A DNA stretch of 28,372 nucleotides from Candidatus Nanobsidianus stetteri. Its GTDB lineage: Archaea; Nanobdellota; Nanobdellia; Nanobdellales; Nanobdellaceae. Under the pieces are notes generated by a model. The model was not told where the DNA came from. It did no database searches and was given only the letters and a program-made list of their open reading frames with translations. This document shows positions 3,565-23,011 of the stretch, piece after piece. The stretch lies in contig NZ_QEFP02000010.1 of assembly GCF_003086415.1 (NCBI RefSeq), forward strand, positions 1 through 28,372, written 5' to 3'. The stretch's first letter is position 1. Each line of letters starts with the position of its first letter. Position numbers and translations under genes: made by a program.

Positions 3565-3582
3565 ACTATTATACTATATAAA

Positions 3583-3901: not shown

Positions 3902-3904
3902 TAG

Positions 3905-4576: not shown

Positions 4577-4593
4577 ATTATTACATTATATAA

Positions 4594-4606
4594 AAATTTT
4601 AAATTT
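4594..4606 (-). promoter_or_regulatory. TATA-like promoter core of P2 (AAATTTTAAATTT, 13-nt variant)
   Basis: Occupies the same position as the family palindrome, centred about 24 nt upstream of the ATG at 4576. Confidence 0.45.
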
Positions 4607-4702
4607 ATATTGTATTCTAATTATATAATTGTAATAAACAAAAAATATAAATTCAAAGATAAAATTGACGACTATATAATTATAGAATAATAATAAATCA
4701 CT

Positions 4703-4735
4703 TTTGAAATAAAAAAAATCTAATAAAGGCTAAAA
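4703..4735 (-). terminator. conserved T-rich 3' flank module of cassette P3
   Basis: TTTGAAATAAAAAAAATCTAATAAAGGCTAAAAA lies just below the stop at 4740. Confidence 0.45.
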
Positions 4736-4739
4736 ATAG

Positions 4740-5552: not shown

Positions 5553-5572
5553 ACTACACACTATGTAGGAAA

Positions 5573-5586
5573 AAATTTATAAATTT
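5573..5586 (-). promoter_or_regulatory. TATA-like promoter core of P3 (perfect palindrome AAATTTATAAATTT)
   Basis: Centred about 27 nt upstream of the ATG at 5552. Identical 14-mers occur upstream of P4, P5 and P6. Confidence 0.55.
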
Positions 5587-5892
5587 ATCTTATACTATAA
5601 TTATATAATTGTAATAAATAAATATTTTTAAAAATAAAATATCTATAATTATAAACTCAAAAATAAAAAATTAATGACTAAATAATTAAAGATCAATCAA
5701 TATTAAAAGTAATTTGGTTAGATAAAAATAAACAGAACTTAATGTAAAAGCTAATACTATTCTAAGAATTTCTGATACTATTATATTTATCATTATTATC
5801 ACAATAATATAAGTAAAACATAAAAATGAATATTTTGACCATGTTGCTTTCTATAAAACCTATTTCACAGTAAAAATAAACCTTATTCAAAT

Positions 5893-6119
5893 ATTTTTAT
5901 AAAAAATATAACTTCGAACTATAAGTTAAGAAAAGTCGTTTCCTTTATACTTTCAAAAACTATTAAAGATACAGTTTCTTTTACTCCTTTAATTTCTCTT
6001 ATCTTATCTAAAACTGCTTTTCCTAAACCCTCAACATCTTTTTCTCTAACCTTTGCAATCATATCCCAATCCCCAGCTATTATATGGACTTCTTGAATTT
6101 CTGGTAAGTTTGCAATTTT
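5893..6119. repeat. 227-bp perfect direct repeat, copy B (identical to 2114-2340)
   Basis: Covers 26 nt downstream of the lrp stop plus the last 201 nt of the lrp CDS. Confidence 0.95.
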
Positions 6120-6377
6120 TTCTGCAACTTCTCTTTGTTTAATACCTGCAGAGGGATCATATTTTATTAAAACAAAAGCCAAAACATTTTTACCAATAGC
6201 TTTAGGATCTAAAATTGCTCTATATTCTTTTATTATTCCTGCATTTTCTAATCTCTTTATTCTAGCGAAAATTGTAGTCTCTCTCATTTCTGTAATTTGA
6301 GAAAGTTCTCTTAATGAAAGTTTGCAATTCTTCTGTAAAAGTGAGAGTAATTGTTTATCCTTTTCATCTATCTTCAT
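5919..6377 (-). CDS. lrp: Lrp/AsnC-family transcriptional regulator (152 aa)
   Basis: N-terminal HTH (LSLRELSQITEMRETTIFARIKRLENAGII) followed by a C-terminal AsnC/RAM-type effector domain. The length is typical for the family. Confidence 0.9.
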   Translation of the reverse strand: MKIDEKDKQLLSLLQKNCKLSLRELSQITEMRETTIFARIKRLENAGIIKEYRAILDPKAIGKNVLAFVLIKYDPSAGIKQREVAEKIANLPEIQEVHIIAGDWDMIAKVREKDVEGLGKAVLDKIREIKGVKETVSLIVFESIKETTFLNL

Positions 6378-8248: not shown

Positions 8249-8441
8249 TTTATAATATATTATTGCCTTATATATAAATATATTTTGAGGATTATTAGAG
8301 TGTTATTATTGTTATAATTGAAATATCTATGTCTATGAAGAATTTTATCAAAAATAATTTAGTGAGAGTAATATTATTTATTTATATTAATTGAATAAAA
8401 TTGGTTATGAAAAATATTTATGTTCTTATAATTAATAAAAT

Positions 8442-8573
8442 CTATTTTCCAGATAATATATTCATTAATTCTTTAAATCCTCCCAATTCTTCTTTAGAAA
8501 TTCCATATAATTCAGCAACTGCCAAATCAATTTCATCTTCAACTTTCCTAAGTTCTTCATTTGCATTAATAGT
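8442..8573 (-). pseudogene. orphan C-terminal fragment (TINANEELRKVEDEIDLAVAELYGISKEELGGFKELMNILSGK), second copy of the 2372-2503 module
   Basis: About 150 bp (8428-8575) aligns with 2355-2512. The upstream part of track ORF 8442..8648 overlaps the metallopeptidase gene and is not conserved. Confidence 0.5.
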
Positions 8574-8574
8574 T

Positions 8575-8925
8575 TTAAAGTAGTTTAGTTCTAAGATTAG
8601 ATTTTTGTATTGCACTATATATTTCTGTTTCATATTTAGTAATTTCATCCATACTATAAATAGAAAGAAGTTTATTTAGAAATTTTGCTCCATGACCTTT
8701 GGTGTTAGTTAATTTATGAATTACTTCATGAACTATAATATATGTAAGACAATCTTCACTAACATTTTTGAAAATATCTTCGTTTATTACAATAAGATCT
8801 TTTTCCCAATCATAATATGCTATCGCTCTAATTTTTTTAGTTAATATTTTAATTGAATCAACTTTTGTTAAATCTATTACTTTAGATTTTATATTTTCAA
8901 TATCAATTTTTGTTGTCATTTTCAT
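8575..8925 (-). CDS. small HExxH zinc metallopeptidase-like protein (DUF45/YgjP-like), last gene of the Type I R-M operon
   Basis: VHEVIHK (HExxH) followed by GHGAKF. It overlaps the hsdR 3' end by 23 nt. COG1451/DUF45 proteins are commonly linked to Type I R-M loci. Confidence 0.6.
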   Translation of the reverse strand: MKMTTKIDIENIKSKVIDLTKVDSIKILTKKIRAIAYYDWEKDLIVINEDIFKNVSEDCLTYIIVHEVIHKLTNTKGHGAKFLNKLLSIYSMDEITKYETEIYSAIQKSNLRTKLL

Positions 8926-11900
8926 ATAACCATCTAATTATCTGATCCTTTATTTTCTCAACTAATTCGACTTTAATATATCTGTCTTCTATTTTTATAT
9001 TTTTACAGTTCTTTACAATATCTATCTTTAATAGCTTTTCTAGCTCGCTTTCTTTGCTATCTATAATATATTTTGCATCTTTGAAAGATTTATTTTTTAT
9101 CATATCTTTTATCTTATTTAGAAAATCTGATAGCTTATTGAAATTTATTTCTTTACAAGATTCGCCAAATTCTTCAGTTAATGCTAATCTTATAGAATAT
9201 AGTATTTTATCTATATCATTCATTTTATTTCTATTTTCAGAATATTTCGTTATTTGATCATAAATTGATTTCAATTGACGTAATATCTCTTTAGTATCTT
9301 GTTTTCTAGCAATCCAGTCTTCTTCTAATTTATTTAATATTTCCGATACTTTTTTATAAAAAGGATCAATGTCTATATCTTCTTCTATTTTCTTATGTAT
9401 TACTAGAAAATATGCATATGTTTTATTTTTAATCTCTTTTTCAGATATTTCAGCCATTTTTTCTAAGATTTTATCATTAATAATTGCACTTTCATCTTCT
9501 TTAAATCTTTCAATTTCCGTTTTATCGTAGATCAAATCTAGTATTTCGTTGAGTAATTTATTTAAACCTTTTATTTTTTTATTTTGTTGACTATTTATTA
9601 ATCTTAATAAAATTTTAACTGTATCTATATCATCTTTATATATTATTTTAGTTGAGGAATTATTATATGGAGATAGAGAATTATAGAATTTTATAACTTT
9701 AACTAAACTATTTATTGTAGACTTTAAATTACTAATTTGTTTTGATAAATTTTCATCATATATAGAATCTAAGTTGTTGAAATAATAATAAAATCTTATT
9801 TTTCTTATTTTATCTTCATATTTTTTTATCCAATTTTCTGTCGATTTTATATCTCTTTTAAGTTCATCCAAATCTATACTTAAATTTTCTCCATTAACAT
9901 ATAATGATTTTAGATTATTTTTAACTTTATCAAAGCATTTCTTAAAATTCTCTTCTTCAGTATTTTCATCTTTTAGAGTAGTTTCTAATTCTTCTTCTAT
10001 ATTTTTTATATCTTTTTGTTGCGATAGCAATCTATTATATTTAATTAGTGTCTTCTTTAAATTTGGTAAAAGACCTATAGAATCTACAACTAATCCCGTT
10101 TCTTTTCCAGGGAAGGGTCTATTCACTCTTCCAATAGCTTGAAGTAATTTGTGACTATAAATTGGTTTATCTAAATACATAACTCTTAATTTAGGATAAT
10201 CAAAACCTGTAATAAGCATATCTGTTACTATTAAAATCCTTGGATCCGATGAATTCTTGAAGTTATCTATAATATTAGAATTAATTTCATCAAAATCTTT
10301 AATTCCGTATTTATTTCTTAATTCTTCCATATATTGTCTAATATCAGGATCTGTTTCATTATAATTATATGTCATTACTATTTCAGACCAATTTTTAGCT
10401 TGTTCTCCAAATGTTTCAATTAGATGTTTATCAAGATATCTTTTCATTAATACACATGCTTTTCTATTAGCCATTACTATCATAGCTTTAAATCTAAATT
10501 CTGGTATTTTAATATTAAAATCCTTTGATTTATTGTTTATATCTATCGTTTGTGTATCTTCTAAAATATGTTCTGTAATATATTTGGCCAATGCATCAAT
10601 TCTTTTTGGATTTAGTAGAAATACTTTTATTTCATTTATTATATTTTTTAACTGCTTATCAGAGATATTAATATTATCTTGTTCAAAATATTCACTAATA
10701 TCTTTTCCTTTTCTTTCATTTTTCAAATATTCTTCTATATATTTTTCAATTTCATTTTCATCTAATTGGAATCTTATACTATTTTCTCCTTCCTTTATAG
10801 ACTTATATATTATTGGTAATGTAGCCCCATCTTTAATTGAATCATTTATAGAATAGGCATCTAAATAAAATTCATTCAGATCTGGATAAGAAAATTCTTT
10901 CAGAGTGTTTTTATCTTCATTAAGTATTGGTGTTGCGGTAAAACCTATAGTTATAGCATTGGGAAATGCTAATCTTCTAACAGAAGCTAGTCTACCATAT
11001 TGACTTCTATGTGCTTCATCAATTAAGAATAATATTTCTTTTTTATTGGGAGCTCCTAATTTAAAACATTCTTCAATTTTATTCTTATCATTAAGTTCTG
11101 AACTCTTTATCTTTTCGTATTCTGAAGGATTTGATGTTTTAAGATAATCCAAATATTCATCTTTTAATTTACAAAGAAGATTAATTATTCCTTCTCTTTC
11201 TTCGTTTTCTAAATCTCCTTTTTGAAATTTTTGTATAGTTACTATATAAATTCCACGGGGAGCAGTTTTACCATTGGAAAATTCAGATTCTTTAATTTGT
11301 TTTATTAAATGATGAAGTTCAGAGATACTATTAATCTTAGTAATATTTTTATAATTAGTTAAAAGTTTATCATGTATTTTAGAAAAGGTATCTGAATGTT
11401 GCTTTTCTAGATCTTGTCTATCTACAACTATAAAAATTATAGGACTTCTATCTGAATAATTAAGTAAGAACTTGTAAGCTATAAAGAACATTGTATAAGT
11501 TTTTCCACTTCCAAGCCAATGCCAAATTAAACCTCTATTTTTATTCGATTTTTCATCTAGATATTCTTTTATTCTATTAAAAGATTTTTCTGCAGCTCTA
11601 TATTGATAATATCTGGCAGCTATTCTATAATAATTATTGTCAGATTTTATTACAAAGACATAATATTTTAAAAAATTTAATAAAGTAGTAGGATTTAAAA
11701 GATCATATATATTATCTTTTCCATCTATTTTCCAGATTTGTAGATTTTTTTCTCTAGGTTTATTATCATAATTTGGAAAAATAGGTACATAACCTTTTTC
11801 CTTACCAATTGCAAATCCTATATGAGTCATTTTGGCAAGCTCTGGGGCTTTTATTTCATATATAGAAAGTTGATTTAATGCTTCGTATTCGGTATCTGGA

Positions 11901-12367
11901 AGTTCTCTTTTTATTTCTACTAAAGCTAATGGAATACCATTTATAAATAATGTAAAATCAGGTTCAATAATATCTATACCTTTAAATTTTAATTCATGAG
12001 CATAAATAAATGAATTTTTTGATATATTATCATAGTCAATAAGTTTTAAATTAAGACTAGTAGATGGGTCTTCAGGATTATCAAAGGTTATACCATGTTT
12101 TATATAATCGGAAAATTCTGATAAAGTAGAATTTTGGATTTTTCTTTTTATTTCATTTAAAATCTTATTTATACTATTGTTAGATAATTTATTAAATATA
12201 TCCTTATTTATTTCTCTTATTTTTTTATCTAGTTCTTCCTCTATGATATATGAAGGAGATATACTATGTTCTTTAAGATCAGGATAAGAATTAGTAATAT
12301 TTTTCCATCCTAGCTTTTCGATATTCTTTATAAAGTGATTATGATCTACTGAAATCTCTAGTCTCAT
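8903..12367 (-). CDS. hsdR: Type I restriction enzyme, R subunit (1154 aa)
   Basis: N-terminal PD-(D/E)xK-like motif (IEPDFTLF..LALVEIKRE), helicase motif I LGSGKT and DEAH box LIDEAHRSQ. Its start overlaps the hsdS stop in a 4-nt ATGA. Confidence 0.92.
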   Translation of the reverse strand: MRLEISVDHNHFIKNIEKLGWKNITNSYPDLKEHSISPSYIIEEELDKKIREINKDIFNKLSNNSINKILNEIKRKIQNSTLSEFSDYIKHGITFDNPEDPSTSLNLKLIDYDNISKNSFIYAHELKFKGIDIIEPDFTLFINGIPLALVEIKRELPDTEYEALNQLSIYEIKAPELAKMTHIGFAIGKEKGYVPIFPNYDNKPREKNLQIWKIDGKDNIYDLLNPTTLLNFLKYYVFVIKSDNNYYRIAARYYQYRAAEKSFNRIKEYLDEKSNKNRGLIWHWLGSGKTYTMFFIAYKFLLNYSDRSPIIFIVVDRQDLEKQHSDTFSKIHDKLLTNYKNITKINSISELHHLIKQIKESEFSNGKTAPRGIYIVTIQKFQKGDLENEEREGIINLLCKLKDEYLDYLKTSNPSEYEKIKSSELNDKNKIEECFKLGAPNKKEILFLIDEAHRSQYGRLASVRRLAFPNAITIGFTATPILNEDKNTLKEFSYPDLNEFYLDAYSINDSIKDGATLPIIYKSIKEGENSIRFQLDENEIEKYIEEYLKNERKGKDISEYFEQDNINISDKQLKNIINEIKVFLLNPKRIDALAKYITEHILEDTQTIDINNKSKDFNIKIPEFRFKAMIVMANRKACVLMKRYLDKHLIETFGEQAKNWSEIVMTYNYNETDPDIRQYMEELRNKYGIKDFDEINSNIIDNFKNSSDPRILIVTDMLITGFDYPKLRVMYLDKPIYSHKLLQAIGRVNRPFPGKETGLVVDSIGLLPNLKKTLIKYNRLLSQQKDIKNIEEELETTLKDENTEEENFKKCFDKVKNNLKSLYVNGENLSIDLDELKRDIKSTENWIKKYEDKIRKIRFYYYFNNLDSIYDENLSKQISNLKSTINSLVKVIKFYNSLSPYNNSSTKIIYKDDIDTVKILLRLINSQQNKKIKGLNKLLNEILDLIYDKTEIERFKEDESAIINDKILEKMAEISEKEIKNKTYAYFLVIHKKIEEDIDIDPFYKKVSEILNKLEEDWIARKQDTKEILRQLKSIYDQITKYSENRNKMNDIDKILYSIRLALTEEFGESCKEINFNKLSDFLNKIKDMIKNKSFKDAKYIIDSKESELEKLLKIDIVKNCKNIKIEDRYIKVELVEKIKDQIIRWLYENDNKN

Positions 12368-13656
12368 TTTAGGTCACCTATTGCGATCGAATTTACCCTT
12401 ATCTTGCCCGTCATTAAAGCCGCTAATAATTTTTCTTTCAATTTCTTCATATAATCTAAATATTTTGTTTCAGTCTCAATTTTGTTATCGATTGTTGAAA
12501 GTATTTCTGCTATTTTCTTCTGTTCTTCTAATGGGGGTAGAGGTATCTTAATTGATTTTAATTTGGATGCTTGGATAGTTTTAATGGTAGTTTGTGATGA
12601 AATATTATCCAAATTTTTCTTAAAAAAATCTGATAGGAAAAACTGTTTAAAAAATGGAGGATAGCATCTTAAACGATTGAGCGAAATTTTCATTAAATTA
12701 GCCGTTATGTTTGCTCCTTCTAGAAATTTAGGAACTATAGCAACTTTTCCCAAAGTTCCTCGTACTGATAGAACAAAATCACCTTCATTTAAGATAGTTC
12801 TATAAAATCTTTTAGAAGTTTCTTTTGAAATAAATCTATATTTACTTAGATCGTCTTCAAGTTCTCCATTTTCTTTTATAAGTTCTGCTCTAACTTCCGG
12901 AACCCCTTCATTCATTCCTACATATTTAATATTGTAATAGGTAGGATACCTATATATATCTATAGCTATCTCTTCAAGCTTAACAATTTCCCAATTCTTT
13001 GGTATCTTTCCAATCTCTGTATCTTTAAATTCTTTATGCCATATTTTCCCAGTAATAAGTAAATTTAATGTTTTTTCTTTTAATATTTTTAGTTTTTCAA
13101 TTAAATTTGTTGTATCTATAATTATAGTATCTACAGTATTAAGAATTTCAACAATCTTTTTTTGTTCCTCTAATGGAGGGATAGGGACTGAGCTATTTAA
13201 AACTATTTCAAGTGTAAGATTGGGTTGAGTACTCTTTTTAATAAATTTACTCCAATAAGGTTTGAAGTATAGATACCAATAATATAAAAATTCTGTATCT
13301 ATAATATTCTTATTAGGTATTATTCCTACAATTGCTTGATTTGTCGTTACTGGTATTTTATTAATTGCAACAAATCCTATAGAACCATAAATTGTTAATA
13401 GTAAAGAATTCTCTGGAACTATCCAAGCATTAGAATTTTCTAATCCTTTTTCAGTAATGAATTCTTCAGTATTATATAGATACTTACTAGATTTCGTTAT
13501 ATCTTGTGCCTTTACAAATGGAATATTTCCGTTCCAATACTCGGGAACATTTGTTCTAGGTGTTCCTCCAGATTTTGCTTTTATTATAACATCTTTTAAT
13601 TTTCTTACTTCCCAATCTTTAGGAAATTTTATAAATTCATCATTATATTCACTCAT
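12364..13656 (-). CDS. hsdS: Type I R-M specificity subunit (430 aa, two target-recognition domains)
   Basis: Two TRD halves are each followed by a conserved helix: PIPPLEEQKKIVEILNTVD and PLPPLEEQKKIAEILSTID. It overlaps both hsdM and hsdR. Confidence 0.92.
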   Translation of the reverse strand: MSEYNDEFIKFPKDWEVRKLKDVIIKAKSGGTPRTNVPEYWNGNIPFVKAQDITKSSKYLYNTEEFITEKGLENSNAWIVPENSLLLTIYGSIGFVAINKIPVTTNQAIVGIIPNKNIIDTEFLYYWYLYFKPYWSKFIKKSTQPNLTLEIVLNSSVPIPPLEEQKKIVEILNTVDTIIIDTTNLIEKLKILKEKTLNLLITGKIWHKEFKDTEIGKIPKNWEIVKLEEIAIDIYRYPTYYNIKYVGMNEGVPEVRAELIKENGELEDDLSKYRFISKETSKRFYRTILNEGDFVLSVRGTLGKVAIVPKFLEGANITANLMKISLNRLRCYPPFFKQFFLSDFFKKNLDNISSQTTIKTIQASKLKSIKIPLPPLEEQKKIAEILSTIDNKIETETKYLDYMKKLKEKLLAALMTGKIRVNSIAIGDLK

Positions 13657-15205
13657 TTTTATTAACTATAATTCTAATTATCTCTTTCAATTCCTTTTCC
13701 TTTTCTTCCCTTTCTTTTTTAATCTCTTCTATATTTTTCCATAATTCTTTTATTTCATCTATACTTACAGAATTATTATTCTGAATTTTTGTAACATAAT
13801 TGGATACATTTAAATTGTAATCATTTTTTATTATTTCTTCTATGTCTACTACTCTAGAAAAACCAGGTATTGTTTTAAATTCTTTATATATTTCTACTAT
13901 TTTTTGTATATGTTCATTGCTTAGTTTATTTAATTTTCTAACTTCGAGATGTTTAACATAAAGATCTGTTGCATCTATAAAAAGAATTTTTCTTTTTCTA
14001 TCTTCTTGTTTTTCTTTATTAAATATTATTATTATTCCAGATGCTTGAGTATTATAAAATAATTTTTCTGGAAGTAGAATTATTGCTTCTATCAGATCAT
14101 CATTAACAATTTTTTCTCTGATTGCTTTTTCTTTTCCCTCTCTAAATAAAGCACCTTGATCTAGTATAACTCCAACTTTCTTTTTAGCATAATATAACAT
14201 CAACTGTATCCACGCCCAATCTGCAGTATTATTTGGGGGAAAGCCATATTTGTAAATTTTGCGTAAACTAATATCATTACCCAATATTTCTTCACCATAT
14301 CCATCTTGATTCCATGGAGGATTGGCTACAACATAATCAACTTTAAATTGTGAATTTTCATCAAACTTAAGCTTTTTTAGACTATCTCCTACCTGAATTT
14401 TTATTAAATTTTTTTCAATTCCATGTAATATAAAGTTTAATTTAGCTATTGCTGCCATATCTGGATTATATTCTTGTCCAAATAGACCAACTCTACTAAC
14501 TCCACCTTTTTCTTTTGTATATTTATAAGCTTCTATTAACATTGCTCCAGATCCCATGGCAGGATCTAATATATCAGACCCAGGTTCTGGGTCAATTAAT
14601 CTTATTAATAATTTAATTACTTCATATGGTGTATATACCTCTCCTTCTTTACCTTTGGTTGGAGCAAATTGAGCTAAAATATACATGTAAGCATCTCCTA
14701 TAATATCATAATCAACGTTAGAAAAATCCAACTTATCAAATATTCTTTTTATTTGATCGAGTCTGGCTTTATGTTCGCTTTCCAAATGTGAAATTCCTAA
14801 TTTATCTAATAGAGCTTTCATTAAATCTTTGCTTATAATATCAGGATTTAATTCAGCAAATTTTATTAAAGCATTTTGGAATTCTTCTAAATAATTACTT
14901 TTCTTAGTTATTTCTTTCCATGTTATTAATTCTCTATTATTTTCATCATACATCTTAAAATCAGAGTTTGCTATAATATAAGCTTCTTCTCTAGATAGTC
15001 CTTCTTCTTTAATTATTCGGTTAACTTCACTTTCATATCTATCACTTATGGCTTTATAGAAAAGAAATATTAATAGTGATCTATAATCTAAACCTGTTCT
15101 AATTAAATCAGCACCTTGCTTCAAAGTTGTAAATAAATCTTTTTTTGATAATTTAGTAGAATTATTTAAGTAATCATTAATTGTCTTTTCCATATATTTT
15201 ATCAA
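13649..15205 (-). CDS. hsdM: Type I R-M N6-adenine DNA methyltransferase subunit (518 aa)
   Basis: SAM-binding motif I DPAMGSGAML and catalytic motif IV VVANPPWN. It is the first gene of the overlapping hsdM-hsdS-hsdR operon. Confidence 0.92.
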   Translation of the reverse strand: MIKYMEKTINDYLNNSTKLSKKDLFTTLKQGADLIRTGLDYRSLLIFLFYKAISDRYESEVNRIIKEEGLSREEAYIIANSDFKMYDENNRELITWKEITKKSNYLEEFQNALIKFAELNPDIISKDLMKALLDKLGISHLESEHKARLDQIKRIFDKLDFSNVDYDIIGDAYMYILAQFAPTKGKEGEVYTPYEVIKLLIRLIDPEPGSDILDPAMGSGAMLIEAYKYTKEKGGVSRVGLFGQEYNPDMAAIAKLNFILHGIEKNLIKIQVGDSLKKLKFDENSQFKVDYVVANPPWNQDGYGEEILGNDISLRKIYKYGFPPNNTADWAWIQLMLYYAKKKVGVILDQGALFREGKEKAIREKIVNDDLIEAIILLPEKLFYNTQASGIIIIFNKEKQEDRKRKILFIDATDLYVKHLEVRKLNKLSNEHIQKIVEIYKEFKTIPGFSRVVDIEEIIKNDYNLNVSNYVTKIQNNNSVSIDEIKELWKNIEEIKKEREEKEKELKEIIRIIVNKNE

Positions 15206-15677: not shown

Positions 15678-16060
15678 ATGATTATACAAAATTTCAAAGA
15701 TAGAAAAGAAGAATTAACCTAGGATATGTTTTTGAAGATATAGCAAAACAATTTTTAATAAAAAGCAAATTATTTAAATTTACAAAAATTGGAAAATGGT
15801 GGTATAAAGATAAAGAAATAGATTTGGTTGCATATAATGAAAATACAAAAGATATATATTTTATAGAATGTAAATATTCTGATAATATAAATGCAAAAGA
15901 AGTATTGGAAGATTTAAAAGAAAAATCTGAATATATAAATTTAGATATAAAAAATAAATACTATATAATATTTGCAAAGAGTTTTAAAGAAAGAATTAAA
16001 GAGAATAATTTACATTTATTTGATTTAAAAGATTTAGAAAATATAATATATCGAATATAA
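15678..16060 (+). pseudogene. gutted archaeal ATPase (Arch_ATPase/DUF234-type) gene: 14 N-terminal codons joined out of frame to the C-terminal DUF234-like tail
   Basis: MIIQNFKDRKEELT* (15678-15722) resembles the F-x-[DN]-R-x-x-E-L start of archaeal ATPases. From 15722 another frame reads GYVFEDIAKQFL..IGKWWYKDKEIDLVAY..FIECKYSD.., which is DUF234-like. The P-loop core is absent. Confidence 0.6.
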
Positions 16061-16167
16061 GAATTAAATAATTTGTTGTTATCAATTAATTTCATAATAT
16101 TTTATTAAATATTTTGCAAAATCATCAATTAAAAAATTTTCTAATTTGTTAGAATAATGTAATTATT

Positions 16168-16197
16168 TTTGAAATAAAAATCTAATAAGGGCTAAAA
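16168..16197 (-). terminator. conserved T-rich 3' flank module of cassette P4
   Basis: TTTGAAATAAAAATCTAATAAGGGCTAAAA lies below the stop at 16210. Confidence 0.45.
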
Positions 16198-16209
16198 AAT
16201 TATAGCTTA

Positions 16210-16758
16210 TTAATAATATTGGTAGTGTATATTAATATTAGGTTCTTCCTTTCCATGTCTAGAAGCAGTTACTGTTATACGCATTCTTTGCTGATCACCC
16301 ATATCTGTAAATGCTTCTGGCTTTGATACACCTAATGCAATTAGAACTAAATATTTCATACCATCTAGGAAATTAGCGATTTGGGGCAAATCAGATAATT
16401 CAAATGATGACTTACTGCTATAATGAGTGCAGCGAAGTTTATTAGGTGAAAATGTAGAGTTCGAATGACATTCAATTTCATCCTTGTCTTTTAGAGAATT
16501 AAGAACGTATAATGTAAAATCATAGTTATCGCACTGAATACCTCCATACATACCTTTACGACAATCCAAACTACCTGCTAAAGAGTATCCTCTCACCCCA
16601 AATTCTTTTATTCCAAAGTCGTTGGTAGCCTTTTCTTTCACATATGCAGCCGTTCCTAGTAATAAGCTATCTAGTTGGCTTCCAATAAGTTGTAACCCTT
16701 TATTAATTTTTTCTCCCTGTATTTTTTCAGGTTCTTTATATAGTTGTTGGCCGTCCAT
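16210..16758 (-). CDS. cassette-family protein P4 (182 aa from the conserved ATG; subtype C, 4-Cys)
   Basis: The ATG at 16758 gives MDGQQLY in the conserved CCATACTA context; the track start at 16770 is less likely. Cys ladder C-x9-C-x20-C-x12-C. The motifs YGGIQC, EIECHSNS and LRCTHYS are shared with P3. Confidence 0.8.
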   Translation of the reverse strand: MDGQQLYKEPEKIQGEKINKGLQLIGSQLDSLLLGTAAYVKEKATNDFGIKEFGVRGYSLAGSLDCRKGMYGGIQCDNYDFTLYVLNSLKDKDEIECHSNSTFSPNKLRCTHYSSKSSFELSDLPQIANFLDGMKYLVLIALGVSKPEAFTDMGDQQRMRITVTASRHGKEEPNINIHYQYY

Positions 16759-16777
16759 ACTATATATCATATGAGAA

Positions 16778-16791
16778 AAATTTATAAATTT
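16778..16791 (-). promoter_or_regulatory. TATA-like promoter core of P4 (AAATTTATAAATTT)
   Basis: Perfect 14-bp palindrome centred about 26 nt upstream of the ATG at 16758. Confidence 0.55.
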
Positions 16792-16900
16792 ATCCTACAC
16801 CATAGCTATATAATTGTAACAAACAAATATTTTTAAAAATAAAATGTTTGTGATTATAAATTCAAAAAATAAAAGATAATAATAGAATAATATAACTACT

Positions 16901-16930
16901 TTTGAAATAAAAAATCTATAAAGGCTAAAA
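16901..16930 (-). terminator. conserved T-rich 3' flank module of cassette P5
   Basis: TTTGAAATAAAAAATCTATAAAGGCTAAAA lies below the stop at 16936. Confidence 0.45.
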
Positions 16931-16935
16931 AATAG

Positions 16936-17613
16936 TTATGACTTAGAAGAGCGATTTAAGTACCACCAGGTAATATTAACATTAAATCCATTCTCATTAT
17001 ATTTAAATTCATTATTATATTCACTTTTATGTATACTTATTAATGGATTTGCTTTTATTTGATTGTCTGGATACCCCGAAGCCTTTATGACTATATTCAT
17101 ACTTTTATTACCCATATTTGTAAGTTCTCCTTGATCTAATATATCATATAATATATTTAGAGTTGATTTTTTTATATCTTCTGGGAAAGGACATTTTTGA
17201 AGAGGATCTGATAACGTAAATTTTTTACCATTATAATCAGAGCATATAATTTTATAAAGTAGTGGGTTTAAATGACATGAAAGTACTTTTCTATTACCTT
17301 TTTTATTATAATAAATATATATTGTAAGATAACCATATTCACCTTTATTATAAAAGTCTTCTATAAGATATGTAAGATAATTATATCCATGCCTCTTAAG
17401 TTTACTAGTAATTTCATTAAAATCAAAATATTTAGGGTAACTTAAACCTATGGATGCATCGAATATTCCTATTTCAGATATGCCAACCTTTTCTAGTGCT
17501 TTTTTAACCACTTCACTTAATGAGCTCTTTAGTTTTTTTATATCATATTCTAGTTCCCATTGTTTAATTTTTTTCATTAAATCGGAACTTTTATATAGAT
17601 ATTGACTGTCCAT
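16936..17613 (-). CDS. cassette-family protein P5 (225 aa; subtype A)
   Basis: MDSQYLY start, IKKLKSSLSEVVKKALEKVGISE, a Tyr-rich insert, KIICSDYNGKKFTLSDPLQKCPFPEDIKKSTLNIL and NMGNKS. It has the conserved flanks. Confidence 0.8.
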   Translation of the reverse strand: MDSQYLYKSSDLMKKIKQWELEYDIKKLKSSLSEVVKKALEKVGISEIGIFDASIGLSYPKYFDFNEITSKLKRHGYNYLTYLIEDFYNKGEYGYLTIYIYYNKKGNRKVLSCHLNPLLYKIICSDYNGKKFTLSDPLQKCPFPEDIKKSTLNILYDILDQGELTNMGNKSMNIVIKASGYPDNQIKANPLISIHKSEYNNEFKYNENGFNVNITWWYLNRSSKS

Positions 17614-17633
17614 ACTATTACATTATATAAGAA

Positions 17634-17647
17634 AAATTTATAAATTT
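17634..17647 (-). promoter_or_regulatory. TATA-like promoter core of P5 (AAATTTATAAATTT)
   Basis: Perfect palindrome centred about 27 nt upstream of the ATG at 17613. Confidence 0.55.
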
Positions 17648-18077
17648 ATCTTATACTATAGTTATATAATTGTAACAAACAAATATTTTTAAAAATAAAA
17701 TATCTATAATTATGAAATCAGGGCATAATAATTATTTGATAGTCTAATCGTCTTCTATTTAAGTTCTCTGGATAGTTGTTAAATAATTTAATATTAAAGT
17801 ATGATATAAAATTCTTGAAAATTAATGTATAAAATATAAGAATTAAATAACTTGTTGTCAATTCTTGAGTTAAATAGATTAGTATTATACTTAACCAGAT
17901 CTCTTTACTTTTTCGGCAAGTCAAAGTTCTAAGCGTTTTTGGCCAATCTGTAGTATGTTAGCATACTTCTTGAAGATAATCTCAAATAAAGATCTATTAT
18001 CATCTAGACTAGGTTATCTAGTCAGGCAACTAAGAGTTCTTTATCATAAAAGTTAAGGTACCTTACACTAAGTCTCT

Positions 18078-19166
18078 CTATTCTTTACTATCTCTTTTAG
18101 TGTCAACCGGTCTGCTATCTTCTTGCGAATGATGAATATCTTTTCCCAACCTCTTAAAGAGCTCTGAAATAGTTTCTATCGCAATCTTTCTTGCTATAAA
18201 AGCGTAAGGGTTATTTTTTTGGATCTCCATTACTATGTCCTCCTGAGAGCTCACTCTATTTATAATCCTCATCAGATCCTTGAAGGTCACAGTTTTCATG
18301 ACTTCTATCTCTTTCTTGACACCCAATACTTTTGCCAACTTATTGTAACTTTCCTTCAAGGCCAGCAAATAAAAGTGAGAAAGTACCTGAACTACTGCCA
18401 TAGCCTTATCGTGCTTCTCAGGGTCGCTAATGATAACATTCAATCCAGCCGACTTCCAGAAAGAGATAACGTCGCTTATGTCTTCACTAGTTTTAGAGGG
18501 TATGACTACTATATCCTCTCCTATTGGGTTTGATTGGGGACCGAAGAGAGGATGAGTGGAGACGAACCGGAAAGATTCCTCAATACTGATTCTCTCGAGG
18601 AAGTCAAAGTTGTCTCCCTTAACGGAGAGGATGTCCATCACAGTCTTTCCTCTTAATGCAGTCTTCAGGTTAAAGAAGTAATCTCCCTTGATTGCCTCGG
18701 GTGGTAGGGCTAAAATTATGTAATCCCCCCATTTCAGAGCTTCATTCTGGGGCATATAGACGCATCCAGATTCCTTTGCAACATTCTCAGCTTTATCAGA
18801 GTTCCTGCCCGTTATTACCACATTGTGTCCGGCTGAGGTGAGAAGCTTGGCCAAAGCTTTGCCCATGCCTCCATATCCTACTATAGTTACTCTCTTGGGA
18901 TAGGAATTGGTAAGCTGAACTTTCTTAGAGTAATACAAAATGGAGTTTACAAGTTCTCTTGCCAATTCTTCAGGAACATTCAGTTTTTTGGAATTTTCGA
19001 CCCAATTCTTTAGTACTTCTGCTTCCCTAGTCTCATCTTTAATAGGTAAACCTAACATATTCTTAATCTCAGCTATTTTTCTAGAAATCAAAAACCTTTG
19101 AGAAATTAAATAAAGGATCTGATAATCTATCTCATCTATTTTATCTCTCAGTTCTTTCAGGCTCAT
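18078..19166 (-). CDS. tyrA: bifunctional chorismate mutase / prephenate dehydrogenase (362 aa)
   Basis: N-terminal AroQ-type chorismate mutase helix (LRDKIDEIDYQILYLISQRFLISRKIAEIK). This is followed by a Rossmann VTIVGYGGMGKALA and the prephenate dehydrogenase signature STHPLFGP. Confidence 0.85.
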   Translation of the reverse strand: MSLKELRDKIDEIDYQILYLISQRFLISRKIAEIKNMLGLPIKDETREAEVLKNWVENSKKLNVPEELARELVNSILYYSKKVQLTNSYPKRVTIVGYGGMGKALAKLLTSAGHNVVITGRNSDKAENVAKESGCVYMPQNEALKWGDYIILALPPEAIKGDYFFNLKTALRGKTVMDILSVKGDNFDFLERISIEESFRFVSTHPLFGPQSNPIGEDIVVIPSKTSEDISDVISFWKSAGLNVIISDPEKHDKAMAVVQVLSHFYLLALKESYNKLAKVLGVKKEIEVMKTVTFKDLMRIINRVSSQEDIVMEIQKNNPYAFIARKIAIETISELFKRLGKDIHHSQEDSRPVDTKRDSKE

Positions 19167-19324
19167 TTTATTAACTCAATGTGGATTGGTTTATGATGCT
19201 CTCCAATCTTCTTATTCAGTGATATCCTCATCAAAGTTTTATTATTGATGGTCTGATGATTGGAACTGTTAGGTGCGTCGTTGTATCTGGAGTGAACAAC
19301 TATAAACTTCACTTCTAGGTTCAT
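19163..19324 (-). CDS. small ORF (53 aa, MNLEVKFIVVHSRYNDAPNSS..) translationally coupled to tyrA; possibly the tail of a truncated upstream gene
   Basis: Not in the ORF track. Its stop overlaps the tyrA start in an ATGA (19163-19166). It has the GC-richer composition of the island and begins exactly at the junction with the cassette remnant. Confidence 0.3.
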   Translation of the reverse strand: MNLEVKFIVVHSRYNDAPNSSNHQTINNKTLMRISLNKKIGEHHKPIHIELIK

Positions 19325-19443
19325 CACGATATGACAGTCTTTGATTGTGCATTTTCAGCCATTTCGTTTAATGAGTTCTCTAAATGTTTTATGGGAAAAT
19401 CAAATATTTTTTCAGAACTTTCATATAATTGTATATTTTCCAT
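19324..19443 (-). pseudogene. 5' remnant of a cassette-family gene (MENIQLYESSEKIFDFPIKHLENSLNEMAENAQ..)
   Basis: The N-terminus is homologous to family members (M-x-x-x-Q-L-Y-x-S-S, then ..SLNEM..). Homology stops after about 34 codons at the GC-rich segment. The proximal promoter module, about 50 bp including the palindrome, is deleted; only the distal module remains (19444-19500). Confidence 0.75.
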
Positions 19444-19557
19444 AATATTGTAATAAGCAAATATTTTAAAAAATGAAGTATCTATAATTATAAAGTTAAA
19501 AATAAAAATTAACGGCAAAATAATTATGAAATAATAATATAGTACAATCCAGAAGGG

Positions 19558-20181
19558 CTAATATAAGTTACAAAACATTGTAATAGTAGATCTACCATTG
19601 TAATAAATAAATATATTATCATCTATAATTATTACTGGATTCTCTATTCTTTGCTTATATGGATCTGTAGAAACAGTTGCTCTCATGTGTATATATTGAT
19701 TACCCATATGCATAGGTACAGCTGGATGTAATGTATTATGTATACTTCGAATTGAATCTTTTATACCCTCCCTAAAAGAAAAGCCTCTAGGATTTTGGGG
19801 AGAATCTTGGGGAGGATCATATAACTCAAACGATTTACCAATATAATCGGTACATTTAATTTTATAAGATATTGTGTTTGAACGACACTCAGCTAATTTA
19901 TATTTATCTTCATTATAAAAGGATGTTGTAATATCGTATCCGCACAACATAAGTCCATCACTATGCTTATGGCAACCCATATCTATTTCGGTAAGGTTTT
20001 TTCTTATTTCAGATAAATAAGTCTTTTCTTTTACTTCTTTAGTCATCCACTTTAATAAGTCCTCTAATTTTTTTATATGATCATTTAGTCTTTTTTTAGT
20101 TTCTTCTTCCGACAATCTATTAATTTTTTCCATTAAATCAGATATATTTTCAAAACTATTAACCGGTTGTTGATCATTCAT
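19558..20181 (-). CDS. cassette-family protein P6 (207 aa; subtype B, 4-Cys)
   Basis: MNDQQ start, IKKLEDLLKWMTKEVKEKTYLSEIR, cysteines at residues 70/80/99/110 (C-x9-C-x18-C-x10-C), HMGNQY and ENPVIII. Confidence 0.8.
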   Translation of the reverse strand: MNDQQPVNSFENISDLMEKINRLSEEETKKRLNDHIKKLEDLLKWMTKEVKEKTYLSEIRKNLTEIDMGCHKHSDGLMLCGYDITTSFYNEDKYKLAECRSNTISYKIKCTDYIGKSFELYDPPQDSPQNPRGFSFREGIKDSIRSIHNTLHPAVPMHMGNQYIHMRATVSTDPYKQRIENPVIIIDDNIFIYYNGRSTITMFCNLY

Positions 20182-20200
20182 ACTATTATACTATATAGAA

Positions 20201-20214
20201 AAATTTATAAATTT
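20201..20214 (-). promoter_or_regulatory. TATA-like promoter core of P6 (AAATTTATAAATTT)
   Basis: Perfect palindrome centred about 26 nt upstream of the ATG at 20181. Confidence 0.55.
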
Positions 20215-20308
20215 ATCTTATACTATAGTTATATAATTGTAACAAACAAAATTATAAAGTCAGAGACGGAAATTAATAACAAAATAATTATAGAATAATA
20301 TAATCATT

Positions 20309-20338
20309 TTTGAAATAAAAATCTAACAAAAGTTAAAA
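20309..20338 (-). terminator. conserved T-rich 3' flank module of cassette P7
   Basis: TTTGAAATAAAAATCTAACAAAAGTTAAAA lies below the stop at 20365. Confidence 0.4.
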
Positions 20339-20364
20339 AATTATAACTTAAGAGGAATATAAAT

Positions 20365-21045
20365 CTACAACAAAGTAATCTCAATCTTAAATATACCCCC
20401 ATCGTATTCAAATCTAAATTCATTATCATATGTACTTCTAGATATACTTATTTTTGGATCCTCTTCTGTTTGATTTTTTGAATTCATAGAAAAAATTGCG
20501 ATCATATTCTTATATCGATTACCAATATTCATAAGTTCCCCTGGATATAATATATCATAATATAATATATCTAGAATTTTCTTTTTTATATTTTTTGGGA
20601 AAGGACAACTTTGATGAGGATCTGATAAACTAAATGATTTGCCATCATGACTATCACATTTAATTTTATCAACTAGATAATCTAAACTACATGAAATTAT
20701 ATCATCTCCGCTATAAAAGTTTGCTGTAAAATAATTATATTTAATCTTATTATAAAAGTCTTCTGTAAGATAATTATTATTATAATTATTATAAAAGTAG
20801 TCTGTTATACTATAATATTCCTTCCCTATAGATCCATTAAAATTTTTATCTTCCCTGCGATGCAAACTCATGGATATATAGAATTCTTTTATTTTAGATA
20901 TATGAGCTATTTTTTCTACTTCTTTAGTCATTTCGTTTAACGAGTCCTTTAGTTCTTCTATATCATCTCTTAGTTTCCATATGTTAATTTTTTCTATTAA
21001 ATCAGATGTTTCTTTAGAACTTTTATTTAATTGTTGATTATACAT
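20365..21045 (-). CDS. cassette-family protein P7 (226 aa; subtype A)
   Basis: MYNQQLNKSS start, IEELKDSLNEMTKEVEKIAHISKIK, a Tyr/Asn-rich insert, KIKCDSHDGKSFSLSDPHQSCPFPKNIKKKILDIL, NIGNRY and EDPKISI. Confidence 0.8.
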   Translation of the reverse strand: MYNQQLNKSSKETSDLIEKINIWKLRDDIEELKDSLNEMTKEVEKIAHISKIKEFYISMSLHRREDKNFNGSIGKEYYSITDYFYNNYNNNYLTEDFYNKIKYNYFTANFYSGDDIISCSLDYLVDKIKCDSHDGKSFSLSDPHQSCPFPKNIKKKILDILYYDILYPGELMNIGNRYKNMIAIFSMNSKNQTEEDPKISISRSTYDNEFRFEYDGGIFKIEITLL

Positions 21046-21063
21046 ACTATTATACTATATAAA

Positions 21064-21077
21064 AAATTTGTAAATTT
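21064..21077 (-). promoter_or_regulatory. TATA-like promoter core of P7 (AAATTTGTAAATTT)
   Basis: The G-variant of the palindrome, centred about 25 nt upstream of the ATG at 21045. Confidence 0.5.
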
Positions 21078-21174
21078 GTATTATATTTTAGTTATGTAAA
21101 TTGTAATAAACAAAATTATAAAATCTCAAAGATAAAAATTAACAACTTAATAATTTTAGAATAATATAATCATT

Positions 21175-21203
21175 TTTGAAATAAAAAATCCATAATGGTT
21201 AAA
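21175..21203 (-). terminator. conserved T-rich 3' flank module of cassette P8
   Basis: TTTGAAATAAAAAATCCATAATGGTTAAA lies below the stop at 21214. Confidence 0.4.
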
Positions 21204-21213
21204 GACGTAAAAG

Positions 21214-21895
21214 TTAAAAGTACTCCAAATATGATGGTTTAAAGACATCAAAGTAAAAAGTAATCTGAATATAAGATCTACCATTGTAAAAGTTTATAGA
21301 ATTTTTACCTATTTTCATTTCTGGATTCGCTTTTGTTGGATGGTCTGGATTCGTAAAAGCATCTGTTTTTATATGTATAACCCTATATTCCAGCCTATAA
21401 CTTTCAAGTAACTTTCCAAACCTTAGCATACTAAAGGCAGATAGAATAGAGCTTTCTACTCTCTTTATGAAAGAAAAGGGATCTTCAAAATAAAATAAGG
21501 GCTCATAACCATCATGAGTGCATCCAAAATTATAAGGTGAACCATCCCAGCCTGTATAACACATAATTACTTTATTTTCTTCAATATGAAGGCGTGCATC
21601 AATATAACGTTTACAAGACAAAGACAAATCATCAAATTCTAGACATATCAAATCTATTAATGTATGAGCTTTTTTTATTTTAGATATATTAGCTTTCTCT
21701 TGTGCTTTTTTAACCATTTCGGATAATGAGGCATCTAGTTCGCCTATGGAAGATTTTACGTACTGCTTAAATTTTTCTTCTTTAGAACTTTTATATGAAT
21801 ATTGATCATATTTTTGACTTTTATCTATTTTTTTTTATATATTTATCAATTATTTTCATTAAATCGGGTTTTCTATATGGCTGTTGGCTGTCCAT
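21214..21895 (-). pseudogene. cassette-family gene P8 (subtype B) interrupted by a frameshift in an A9 tract; the track shows only the 167-aa downstream part (21214..21717)
   Basis: The ATG at 21895 in the conserved context gives MDSQQPYRKPDLMKIIDKYIKKNR*. The next frame continues KKIDKSQKYDQYSYKSS..SLSEMVKKAQEKANISKIKK.. into the annotated ORF. The frames switch inside the T9 run at 21828-21836 on the plus strand. Removing one base gives a 226-aa protein collinear with P1. Confidence 0.75.
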
Positions 21896-21913
21896 ACTAT
21901 ATATTATATAAAA

Positions 21914-21927
21914 AAATTTGTAAATTT
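21914..21927 (-). promoter_or_regulatory. TATA-like promoter core of P8 (AAATTTGTAAATTT)
   Basis: Centred about 25 nt upstream of the ATG at 21895. Confidence 0.5.
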
Positions 21928-22014
21928 ATCTTATATTATAATCATGTAATTGTAATTGACAAACATTTTTAAAAATAAAATATCTATAATTATAAATTTA
22001 AAGATGTAATCATT

Positions 22015-22040
22015 TTTGAAAAATTTAATAAAAGGTAAAG
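22015..22040 (-). terminator. diverged T-rich 3' flank module of cassette P9
   Basis: TTTGAAAAATTTAATAAAAGGTAAAG lies below the stop at 22053. Confidence 0.35.
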
Positions 22041-22052
22041 GTCATAAAAGTC

Positions 22053-22649
22053 TTAAATCTCCAAAATATTAGATCCACCGAGGGTTACATATATCTTGAT
22101 ATAGCGTATATCATCGTAATATTCAATTGTGTAACTGCTTTCATCTATTTTACGTTTACTTATTTCTGGATTCTCTTTTGTTTGCCCCTTTGAATCAGTA
22201 TATGCATCTAAATTTATAAGTATATCTCGATCATTCGATTTCTTAAGGACTTCTGGAAATGCTGCATAAAATATATTTAGAGAGTTATCTTTTATCTTTT
22301 CTAAGAAAGAAATGGTTTGAAGAGAATCAAATAACTCAACTGATCTATCGTTATCCTCAGTGCATTTAATTTTAGAAGGAAAATATGGCATGTCAGAATA
22401 ACACATAATTTCCCTATCCTTATAATAATGGTGCGATTTGACGTTATGTTCACACAGAATAGATTCGCTACCGGATTTATGACAATACGAATTTATTGAT
22501 GTAATAGAACTTTCTATTTTGGGTAGATTAAAGTTTTCTTGTACTTTTTTATACAAGTCGTCTAATAAGTCTCCCAAATCTTTTATGTGATCTTTTAATT
22601 TTTTAATATCCTCTTGTTCAGAACTTTCATCTGATGGTTGACCACTCAT
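22053..22649 (-). CDS. cassette-family protein P9 (198 aa; subtype B, 4-Cys)
   Basis: MSGQP start, IKDLGDLLDDLYKKVQENFNLPKIE, Cys ladder C-x9-C-x16-C-x12-C and ENPEIS. It has the conserved 5' flank. Confidence 0.75.
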   Translation of the reverse strand: MSGQPSDESSEQEDIKKLKDHIKDLGDLLDDLYKKVQENFNLPKIESSITSINSYCHKSGSESILCEHNVKSHHYYKDREIMCYSDMPYFPSKIKCTEDNDRSVELFDSLQTISFLEKIKDNSLNIFYAAFPEVLKKSNDRDILINLDAYTDSKGQTKENPEISKRKIDESSYTIEYYDDIRYIKIYVTLGGSNILEI

Positions 22650-22669
22650 ACTATTCTATTATATAAGAA

Positions 22670-22683
22670 AAATTTGTAAATTT
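22670..22683 (-). promoter_or_regulatory. TATA-like promoter core of P9 (AAATTTGTAAATTT)
   Basis: Centred about 27 nt upstream of the ATG at 22649. Confidence 0.5.
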
Positions 22684-23011
22684 ATCTCATATTTTAGTTA
22701 TGTAATTGTAACAAACAAAATTAGAAAATCAAAGATAAAAAATTAACAACTTAATAATCAAAGATCAATTTAGATTAAATGTAAAAAAGGTTTAGATTAT
22801 ATAATGGGATTATAAATGAAAATAAAAACTGTTTATAATGAAAATTATAAAATATATCTAAAATAATATATACAGTATTTAACAATATTAGATAGTAATA
22901 TTATAAAAAGAATTATTCAGGCATTGTTATATTTATCCTTTAATAAATATAATTATATGAATTTGGAAATAAATGATCATTTTTAAAATAAATTTTTATA
23001 ATATCCTTATA

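Follow-up and report, generated by a model that had tools for sequence, protein, structure and literature searches.

The window analysed here, by which we mean the whole contig of 28,372 nt, is an AT-rich stretch of DNA (GC ~24%) from Candidatus Nanobsidianus stetteri (Nanoarchaeota), a hot-spring archaeon that lives as an obligate ectosymbiont (PMC3655853). It contains two tandem arrays of one protein family, in which each gene lies between conserved flanks and forms a cassette-like unit. A hidden Markov model (HMM) of the family, run against the six-frame translation, identified exactly ten family loci (eight intact, one frameshifted and one remnant). Seven of these belong to array 2 (five intact, together with the frameshifted copy and the remnant) and three, all intact, to array 1, so that the family occupies 21% of the contig. 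Array 2 is listed first below, from its distal to its proximal boundary, and is followed by array 1 and the restriction-modification region (aa, amino acids; BRE, transcription factor B recognition element).

16061-16209, minus strand: distal boundary of array 2 (repeat families D10/D15), with the 3' flank motif at ~16150-16203 below the stop codon of the last cassette; it abuts the DUF234 fragment
16210-16758, minus strand: cassette ORF P4, 182 aa, type T22, with its MDGQQ start at 16758 (ORF call and HMM)
16759-16935, minus strand: intergenic module, with the T-rich 3' motif of P5 and the upstream element and putative BRE/TATA promoter of P4 (promoter pattern match at 16782-16819)
16936-17613, minus strand: cassette ORF P5, 225 aa, type T43, of a subtype with a Tyr/Asn-rich insertion
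17614-17780, minus strand: putative P5 promoter module, with the TATA octamer TTTATAAA at 17637-17644, 23 nt before the ATG and within a near-palindrome at 17626-17655
17900-19320, minus strand: higher-GC, apparently foreign insert with the chorismate mutase/prephenate dehydrogenase gene at 18078-19166 (GC content and domain matches)
19324-19443, minus strand: cassette remnant that retains part of the N-terminal helix only (HMM positions 42-80), its upstream flank lacking the TATA segment
19558-20181, minus strand: cassette ORF P6, 207 aa, type T30, the copy chosen for the structure model
20182-20364, minus strand: intergenic module, with the putative P7 terminator motif and P6 promoter (pattern match at 20205-20242)
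20365-21045, minus strand: cassette ORF P7, 226 aa, type T04
21046-21213, minus strand: intergenic module, one of the two homology tracts around P8 (P8 presence or absence, window versus L024, 180-nt overlap)
21214-21895, minus strand: cassette P8, type T21, frameshifted; once repaired, the protein shares 75% identity with an intact L033 copy
21896-22052, minus strand: intergenic module, with the putative P9 terminator motif and P8 promoter (pattern match at 21918-21955)
22053-22649, minus strand: cassette ORF P9, 198 aa, type T10, the first cassette beside the conserved 73-aa/111-aa/TyrRS/archaellum side
22650-22800, minus strand: putative P9 promoter module, the proximal boundary of array 2 (pattern match at 22674-22711)
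2911-5718, minus strand: array 1, three cassettes (2911-3564, 3905-4576 and 4740-5552) with the same flanks, between the 438-aa P-loop gene and AsnC
8903-15205: Type I restriction-modification operon region, and at 15824-16060, plus strand, a truncated DUF234 ATPase fragment (DUF234 match; the ATPase is intact in relatives)

The minus-strand open reading frames (ORFs) that an earlier annotation of this DNA, hereafter the original prediction, had named in array 2 were all recovered in the ORF list and by the family HMM. Its statement that every minus-strand ORF in this span belongs to the repeated unit holds for the family copies but not for the gene at 18078-19166, which encodes a chorismate mutase/prephenate dehydrogenase. 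The frameshift that it had noted in P8 was located to a run of nine A residues (21828-21836), where deletion of a single A restores a protein of 226 aa. This tract could mean that P8 is a true pseudogene or that the sequence contains an error; it could also be prone to slippage and still allow some full-length product.

Comparison of the cassettes revealed conserved sequence on both sides of the variable ORF, as had been described from the first inspection. The 5' flank forms a 116-nt repeat family with nine copies in the window and the 3' flank a family with five to six. In alignments, the upstream block common to the cassettes ends in TTACAATTAYATAACTATRGTATAAGATAAATTTAYAAATTTTTCTTATATAATRTAATAGT-ATG, while the common 3' block reads TTTTAGCCTTTATTAGATTTTT(T)ATTTCAAAAATGATTATATTATTCTA. 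A degenerate promoter pattern of 38 nt gave eight matches in the window and none in 100 shuffles. When identity was estimated separately for the two parts, the matches per length between paralogs reached 0.83 over the 75 nt before the ATG and 0.67 in the ORFs, against 0.60 in a shuffled control, so the flanks are indeed better conserved than the genes that they enclose. This conservation continues into approximately the first 45 nt (~15 codons) of the ORF.

Within the upstream block lies a TATA-like octamer, typically TTTATAAA. Its end is 22-23 nt upstream of the ATG in 53 of the 76 unique cassette contexts, and in 67 of them the distance is 19-27 nt. Every intact copy in the window possesses its own octamer at 22-23 nt, which supports the proposal that the genes are individually promoted, and only the remnant is devoid of the TATA segment. 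The same spacing is found in other genes of the window, for example those encoding the 111-aa and 164-aa proteins. In archaea, the centre of the TATA box lies ~26-27 nt ahead of the transcription start. Since the TATA-to-ATG spacing of the cassettes fits this distance, transcription would start at or next to the ATG and yield a leaderless mRNA, and an alternative upstream ATG of P4 at 16770 would fall outside such a transcript. T runs are the usual archaeal termination signal, and the conserved T-rich 3' motif, which holds such runs, probably acts as a terminator, albeit T runs are common by chance in DNA this AT-rich.

Two further features of the promoter region were observed. Its core, TATAAGATAAATTTATAAATTTTTCTTATA, forms a near-palindrome of 30 nt, in which 28 positions match and the TATA box is central; found at 17626-17655 and again in other cassettes, it could be the site of a dimeric regulator or could support divergent transcription into the upstream cassette. 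In the related locus L001 (7270-10003; cassettes 7388, 8322, 9064 and 10001), a promoter variant carries a 10-nt deletion in which GATAAATTTA is lost and TATAATAAATTTTT is left, and this deletion may alter promoter strength or spacing. Examination of inverted repeats in the intergenic modules revealed no G+C-rich hairpin or stem-loop.

To place these arrays among their relatives, related DNA was gathered from genome and metagenome collections by means of two family proteins, the promoter pattern and divergent members. The resulting 49 sources hold 123 family genes, always in tandem and on one strand, which comprise 102 unique sequences and 53 types at 70% aa identity. More than 120 of the ORFs are intact, and the types are only 20-45% identical to one another. 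The three subtypes previously distinguished in the window are thus valid as a small sample but understate the diversity of the population, in which at least 53 types occur, with repertoires that differ between the related genomes and metagenomes. Most resolvable loci lie at one chromosomal address with the shared order of archaellum genes, TyrRS, 111-aa gene, 73-aa gene, array and ATPase_2/DUF234 gene, and the copy number at this address ranges from one to nine.

At this shared address, the contrast between the array and its surroundings is pronounced. Strains whose TyrRS, FlaI and FlaH are 93-98% identical have best cassette matches of mostly 30-46% and share almost no cassette above 45%. Between the window and L001, for instance, the three flanking proteins are 96-98% identical and the best cassette matches mostly 31-43%, with a single one at 62%. 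Types also swap neighbours between arrays: T00 follows T09, T08, T50 or T03, and T01 occurs in four contexts. Where two arrays differ by one cassette (L017 versus L013, and the window versus L024), the alignments on either side of the insertion or deletion overlap by 165-180 nt within a conserved intergenic module, a pattern characteristic of homologous recombination between direct repeats. These observations strongly support the cassette exchange that had been suspected.

The accompanying suggestion of gene conversion inside the ORFs proved to be its weak part. A single clear intragenic mosaic was found among the 102 unique genes, namely L037 4432-5175 and L033 1710-2474, which belong to different types and are 96% identical over their first 194 nt; the remaining genes gave no such case. 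The 31-nt patch shared by 4135-4165 and 17178-17208 is identical, as reported, and falls in the best-conserved motif of one subtype, so that alone it does not demonstrate conversion. With only one clear mosaic between types, intragenic gene conversion was rejected as the main process. In addition, an N-terminal module of ~30 aa (QQxxKSSEKISE...WLEKTDKS.KYN) is present in none to two extra copies across the family, with extras in many members, and the 5' end of the cassette seems to be exchanged separately from its body.

The proteins themselves share the features first noticed in the window: an M-D-x-Q-Q start, an NP.I motif and, among 51 type representatives, two invariant and two frequent cysteines, with four cysteines in most proteins. 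No characterised family could be matched to them, in agreement with the absence of a nameable domain in the original prediction. Scans of the paralogs against Pfam, NCBIfam, PADLOC and PHROGs gave only matches far below the curated cut-offs, and the best hit of a PDB sequence profile search (E-value 0.028) was to designed coiled coils, which we regard as noise. The names 'soluble cytochrome b562' and 'predicted nucleic acid-binding protein' given to members by JGI (P0003, P0004 and P0076) were backed by no search and were not retained. An exhaustive profile search of 1.84 billion representative proteins returned 75 relatives, all of similar size; a repeat with a broader alignment of 63 sequences gave fewer matches, owing to a word-index limit. 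The members that were looked up all come from Nanopusillus or Nanobsidianus sources and include Nst1_145 of the original Nst1 genome, and we found no account of the family in the literature searched.

An AlphaFold2 model of P6, built from the family alignment, reached a predicted local distance difference test score of 86.7 and a predicted template modelling score of 0.80. The modelled chain runs from a 42-residue N-terminal helix through five antiparallel strands and a second helix to four more strands. In the predicted fold, the long N-terminal helix and the second one pack against a nine-stranded antiparallel sheet with the two invariant cysteines. Foldseek searches with full-length and domain-only models against PDB and BFVD gave a best TM-score of at most 0.36, where ~0.5 marks a known fold; matches to LolA/LolB and to the major histocompatibility complex platform were not accepted as fold assignments. 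In the 51 type representatives, the entropy at strand positions was 2.61 bits in the exposed phase and 1.72 bits in the buried phase (p = 3e-6). Hence the fold appears to be preserved, with nearly free variation on one face of the sheet.

The ratio of nonsynonymous to synonymous substitution rates (dN/dS, Nei-Gojobori) had a median of 0.74 across allelic family pairs of 70-99.5% aa identity and exceeded 1 in 21% of them, although the pairs are non-independent and many hold few substitutions. The neighbouring TyrRS, FlaI and FlaH genes gave 0.04-0.18 and the 111-aa gene 0.12-0.35. For comparison, the genome-wide ratio of nonsynonymous to synonymous polymorphism in a related Nanoarchaeota population is 0.159 (PMC6142677). 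The predicted diversification of the family is thus borne out. Because the pairs are non-independent and many contain few changes, we read these values cautiously, as strongly relaxed or partly positive selection on the ORF bodies and not as proof of positive selection.

Such values also invite a simpler explanation, in which a young orphan family of little or no adaptive role drifts under relaxed constraint and its flanks stay alike through promoter constraint and unequal crossing-over. A dN/dS of ~0.74 is near neutral and many pairs lie below 1; a frameshifted copy, a remnant and a foreign gene dropped into the array are present, and the copy number falls as low as one. We nevertheless consider this account improbable, since drift would hardly leave more than 120 intact ORFs spread over 53 types only 20-45% identical, together with enough fold signal for a confident AlphaFold2 model and conserved buried positions and cysteines. 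Moreover, the promoters of useless genes would not persist, and the family fills about a fifth of the contig.

The foreign gene in question lies in a segment of 30-50% GC, against ~24% for the array, that has replaced most of one cassette; the gene itself (18078-19166) is ~40% GC. The segment looks like foreign DNA captured at a hot spot. A chorismate mutase/prephenate dehydrogenase gene is odd in an organism thought to be without amino-acid biosynthesis. An identical protein is encoded on seven short metagenome contigs, one of which (L011) also carries a cassette promoter.

The remaining genes of the window define the setting of the arrays. They are archaeal and include FlaH, FlaI and other archaellum genes, TyrRS, an AsnC-type regulator and an AsnA-like synthetase, beside a Type I restriction-modification operon with an SprT-like gene, the ATPase_2/DUF234 fragment and a P-loop NTPase. 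The Nst1 array at the same address has three copies, followed by an intact ATPase, a Type IIG restriction-modification gene, the AsnA-like gene, AsnC and the 438-aa gene. The window instead carries a Type I system, a truncated ATPase and a second array between AsnC and the 438-aa gene. The accessory region beside a restriction-modification operon that the original prediction described is therefore a strain-variable island, with Type I genes here and Type IIG genes in Nst1. The adjoining defence content is itself strain-variable, the intact ATPase and the Eco57I-like Type IIG gene of Nst1 lying at L049 12346-17261. At the far edge of the variable region, the 438-aa P-loop protein (747-2063, minus strand) gave only weak matches (nSTAND3, DnaC-like), and the 199-aa protein (21-620, minus strand) gave none in domain scans; Nst1 keeps the 438-aa gene at the corresponding position.

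The distribution of the island is narrow. The promoter pattern was detected in one of 185,579 GTDB species genomes, a Nanopusillus metagenome-assembled genome with the same locus, and in 38 metagenome loci. In three sister lineages with TyrRS ~78% identical, the archaellum-TyrRS-110-aa synteny is kept and is followed by housekeeping genes, the island being absent; the family HMM found no member in the one sister region scanned (L053). Because the pattern occurs in a single GTDB species genome and the sister lineages are without the island, the island is specific to one species-level clade in the available data.

Array 1 provides a further view of how this island is rearranged. Its left edge (2104-2783) is a patchwork of copies from three other places in the window (families D9, D17 and D18): 2104-2351 is 97% identical to 5883-6130, 2365-2512 is 90% identical to 8435-8582, and 2655-2783 is 93% identical to 15949-16077. 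One of these pieces derives from the DUF234 fragment that bounds array 2, and in strain Nst1 the junction between AsnC and the 438-aa gene carries no array. Since it is bounded by duplicated fragments of three other places, array 1 looks like a secondary, transposed or duplicated piece of the array 2 end that was inserted between AsnC and the 438-aa gene. On a separate 759-bp contig (P0029, NCBI), an ORF of 121 aa fuses an N-terminal family part to the C-terminal end of the DUF234 ATPase, and this fusion looks like a recombination product at an array boundary.

The absence of the island in the sister species and the transposition of a second array along with boundary fragments might suggest a mobile-element origin, in which the arrays would be what is left of, or was carried by, an integrated virus, plasmid or integron-like element and a site-specific recombinase would have moved them. 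The repeats between the cassettes are similar to the intergenic sequences of recombinase-associated cassette arrays (10.1101/471110), and the weak DnaC-like match of the nearby P-loop protein agrees with such an origin. We judge it very unlikely, however, since neither the scanned ORFs of the window nor the related loci with precomputed Pfam matches showed an integrase or recombinase domain, and the tRNA scan of the window detected no tRNA gene; a scan of the window against Rfam was likewise without a match. The family found no match in PHROGs and no structural match in BFVD, and IMG/VR was negative both by promoter DNA pattern and by protein. No attC-like hairpin was present at the cassette ends, where the inverted repeats are AT-rich palindromes only, the recurring one coinciding with the promoter core and not with the 3' end. 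Finally, the long homology overlaps at the junctions are those predicted by homologous recombination.

Where the proteins act can be addressed from their sequences. None of the 123 members has a signal peptide, a transmembrane segment, a class III pilin signal or a lipobox. The first 25 aa have a median hydropathy of -1.17, and the maximum hydropathy over 19 aa has a median of 0.73, compared with 2.5-2.9 in the membrane-protein controls of the window. The earlier reading of the window copies as free of signal peptides and membrane helices therefore extends to the whole family.

This finding bears directly on the main rival of the interpretation that we favour, namely that the proteins are effectors or specificity factors passed or displayed to the Sulfolobales host, diversified in an arms race, with the repertoire setting the host range. 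The organism is an obligate ectosymbiont (PMC3655853), the array adjoins the archaellum operon, and the family is clade-specific, highly polymorphic between strains and elevated in dN/dS, while putative interaction proteins are known to evolve fast in Nanoarchaeota populations (PMC6142677). Those published fast-evolving classes are surface-exposed, however, whereas the family proteins lack any export signal. Promoters on all copies suit a co-expressed repertoire better than one-at-a-time variation, and on its other side the array directly adjoins restriction-modification and ATPase genes. A host-directed repertoire is thus possible but in our view rather doubtful; neutral decay and a mobile-element origin fit less well still.

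Taken together, we consider it probable that the locus encodes a repertoire of variable cytosolic binding proteins, shuffled as cassettes by way of promoter/terminator modules, most likely for biological conflict of the immunity type or in host interaction. The genetic mechanism is well supported, with autonomous cassettes whose modules would double as homology tracts for the gain, loss and reordering of whole genes. Each cassette would form a complete transcription unit composed of an upstream element, a BRE/TATA promoter, an ORF of ~200 aa and a T-rich 3' motif. The intergenic modules of ~160 nt and the first ~15 codons, alike in all copies, would drive the expression of every copy, and the modules would also supply the direct-repeat homology for homologous or unequal recombination within and between strains, by which whole genes would be inserted, deleted and reordered. 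The ORF bodies would meanwhile diverge under much weaker constraint or partly positive selection while one fold is kept, with most of the variation predicted on the exposed face of the sheet. From a population pool of at least 53 types, each cell would carry, and probably co-express, one to ten, and the products would serve as soluble intracellular binding proteins for variable partners in biological conflict.

The anatomy of the units, the conservation of the flanks, the narrow distribution, the turnover of repertoires, the positions of the junctions, the raised dN/dS and the lack of homologs are direct observations; the transcription start, the terminator, the recombination mechanism, the co-expression and the function are inferred. 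An intracellular, co-expressed conflict repertoire is favoured because no protein of the family bears an export signal, and simultaneous expression is favoured over one-at-a-time variation because every copy has its own promoter. A role in conflict is favoured because the array lies in a strain-variable island with restriction-modification and NTPase genes, and because the related strain Nst1 is without CRISPR and has very few paralogs (PMC3655853); Podar et al. describe Nst1 as poor in lineage-specific expansions (PMC3655853). The most likely function would be that of an immunity-type or neutralising repertoire directed at antagonists that themselves vary, for example toxins, viral factors or factors of the host.

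Several points weigh against this interpretation. The promoter, the leaderless start and the terminator are read from sequence alone. A dN/dS of ~0.7, the frameshifted copy and the remnant are equally expected from relaxed constraint, and the allelic pairs behind that ratio carry the limits given above. Greater variability at exposed strand positions is expected of any amphipathic sheet. The defence-island argument is one of guilt by association; profile scans revealed no similarity to any immunity, defence or effector family, and no linked toxin gene with a variable C-terminal domain, the hallmark of polymorphic toxin-immunity loci, was found in the window or in related loci. Finally, most of the comparison arrays are metagenome assemblies, in which conserved flanks could cause chimeric joins. 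We judged such an assembly artefact unlikely, as exact matches between flanks in the window do not exceed 54 nt and several cassette orders recur in independent samples.

The nearest mechanistic parallel to the proposed system is the modular shuffling mediated by promoter early stem-loop (PeSL) elements in T4-like phages (PMC2839356, PMC4122927). In both cases, small conserved composites of terminator and promoter separate genes that vary strongly, the modules hold the junctions of insertions, deletions and replacements between close relatives, and each variable gene would form an autonomous transcription unit, here as judged from the sequence and with a putative terminator. Unlike the phage elements, the array resides on a cellular archaeal chromosome, between TyrRS/archaellum genes, with BRE/TATA promoters and presumably leaderless mRNAs; its modules contain no stem-loop, and the shuffled genes are paralogs of one family, whereas those of the phages are unrelated ORFans.

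By function, the nearest parallel may be offered by the orphan immunity arrays of gut Bacteroidales (10.1101/471110), termed acquired interbacterial defence (AID) and recombinase-associated AID (rAID-1) clusters. These are likewise strain-variable arrays of small cytosolic proteins in accessory regions, with repetitive intergenic sequence and many genes expressed together as a protective repertoire, a co-expression that is putative in the present case. Unlike the rAID-1 clusters, the arrays described here have no recombinase that we could find, show no similarity to immunity families, and consist of one family in place of many unrelated ones. Likewise, repetitive intergenic sequence is shared with integrons, but neither an adjacent tyrosine recombinase of the IntI/XerD family nor attC was found. 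We know of no toxin system in these archaea, unlike in Bacteroidales.

The array also recalls systems of antigenic and ligand variation. The Mycoplasma vsp/vlp and Borrelia vls loci are tandem paralogs with conserved 5' regions and divergent bodies that take up a large share of a small genome and vary by recombination. Their products are surface lipoproteins with signal peptides, expressed from one site or by invertible promoters, whereas the array proteins have no export signal and every intact copy its own putative promoter. The targets of diversity-generating retroelements in DPANN/Nanoarchaeota (PMC5006420) similarly display massive variation of a binding protein on a conserved fold in nano-sized symbionts. 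In contrast to those systems, no reverse transcriptase is present among the window ORFs scanned, the repeats are flanks of whole cassettes and not a pair of template and variable repeats, and variation extends over the whole ORF and is stored as many germline paralogs, not in one variable region.

The feature is real and well-delimited: the protein family is new and is organised as a cassette-shuffling array in an archaeal symbiont, while the principle itself has precedents. As a tentative extension, the locus might represent an undescribed archaeal diversity system, in which portable promoter-terminator modules serve as recombination handles to build, from a pool of at least 53 types, a per-cell co-expressed set of a binding protein of new fold, acting as an innate recognition repertoire against viruses or toxins or as a determinant of the host cell.

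Nanoarchaeota genomes are among the smallest and most paralog-poor known (PMC3655853), and it is therefore notable that such a lineage devotes about one-fifth of this contig to a single fast-turning family that no database recognises. The locus also offers a clean archaeal case of regulatory modules that would double as recombination sites, a principle described so far chiefly in T4-like phages. With its structure predicted confidently, its conserved and variable surfaces defined and its chromosomal address fixed, the family can be tested directly. With repertoires that differ almost completely between strains whose flanking proteins are 93-98% identical, this family is the most obvious candidate for deciding strain-level success, be it through host specificity, virus resistance or competition among symbionts.

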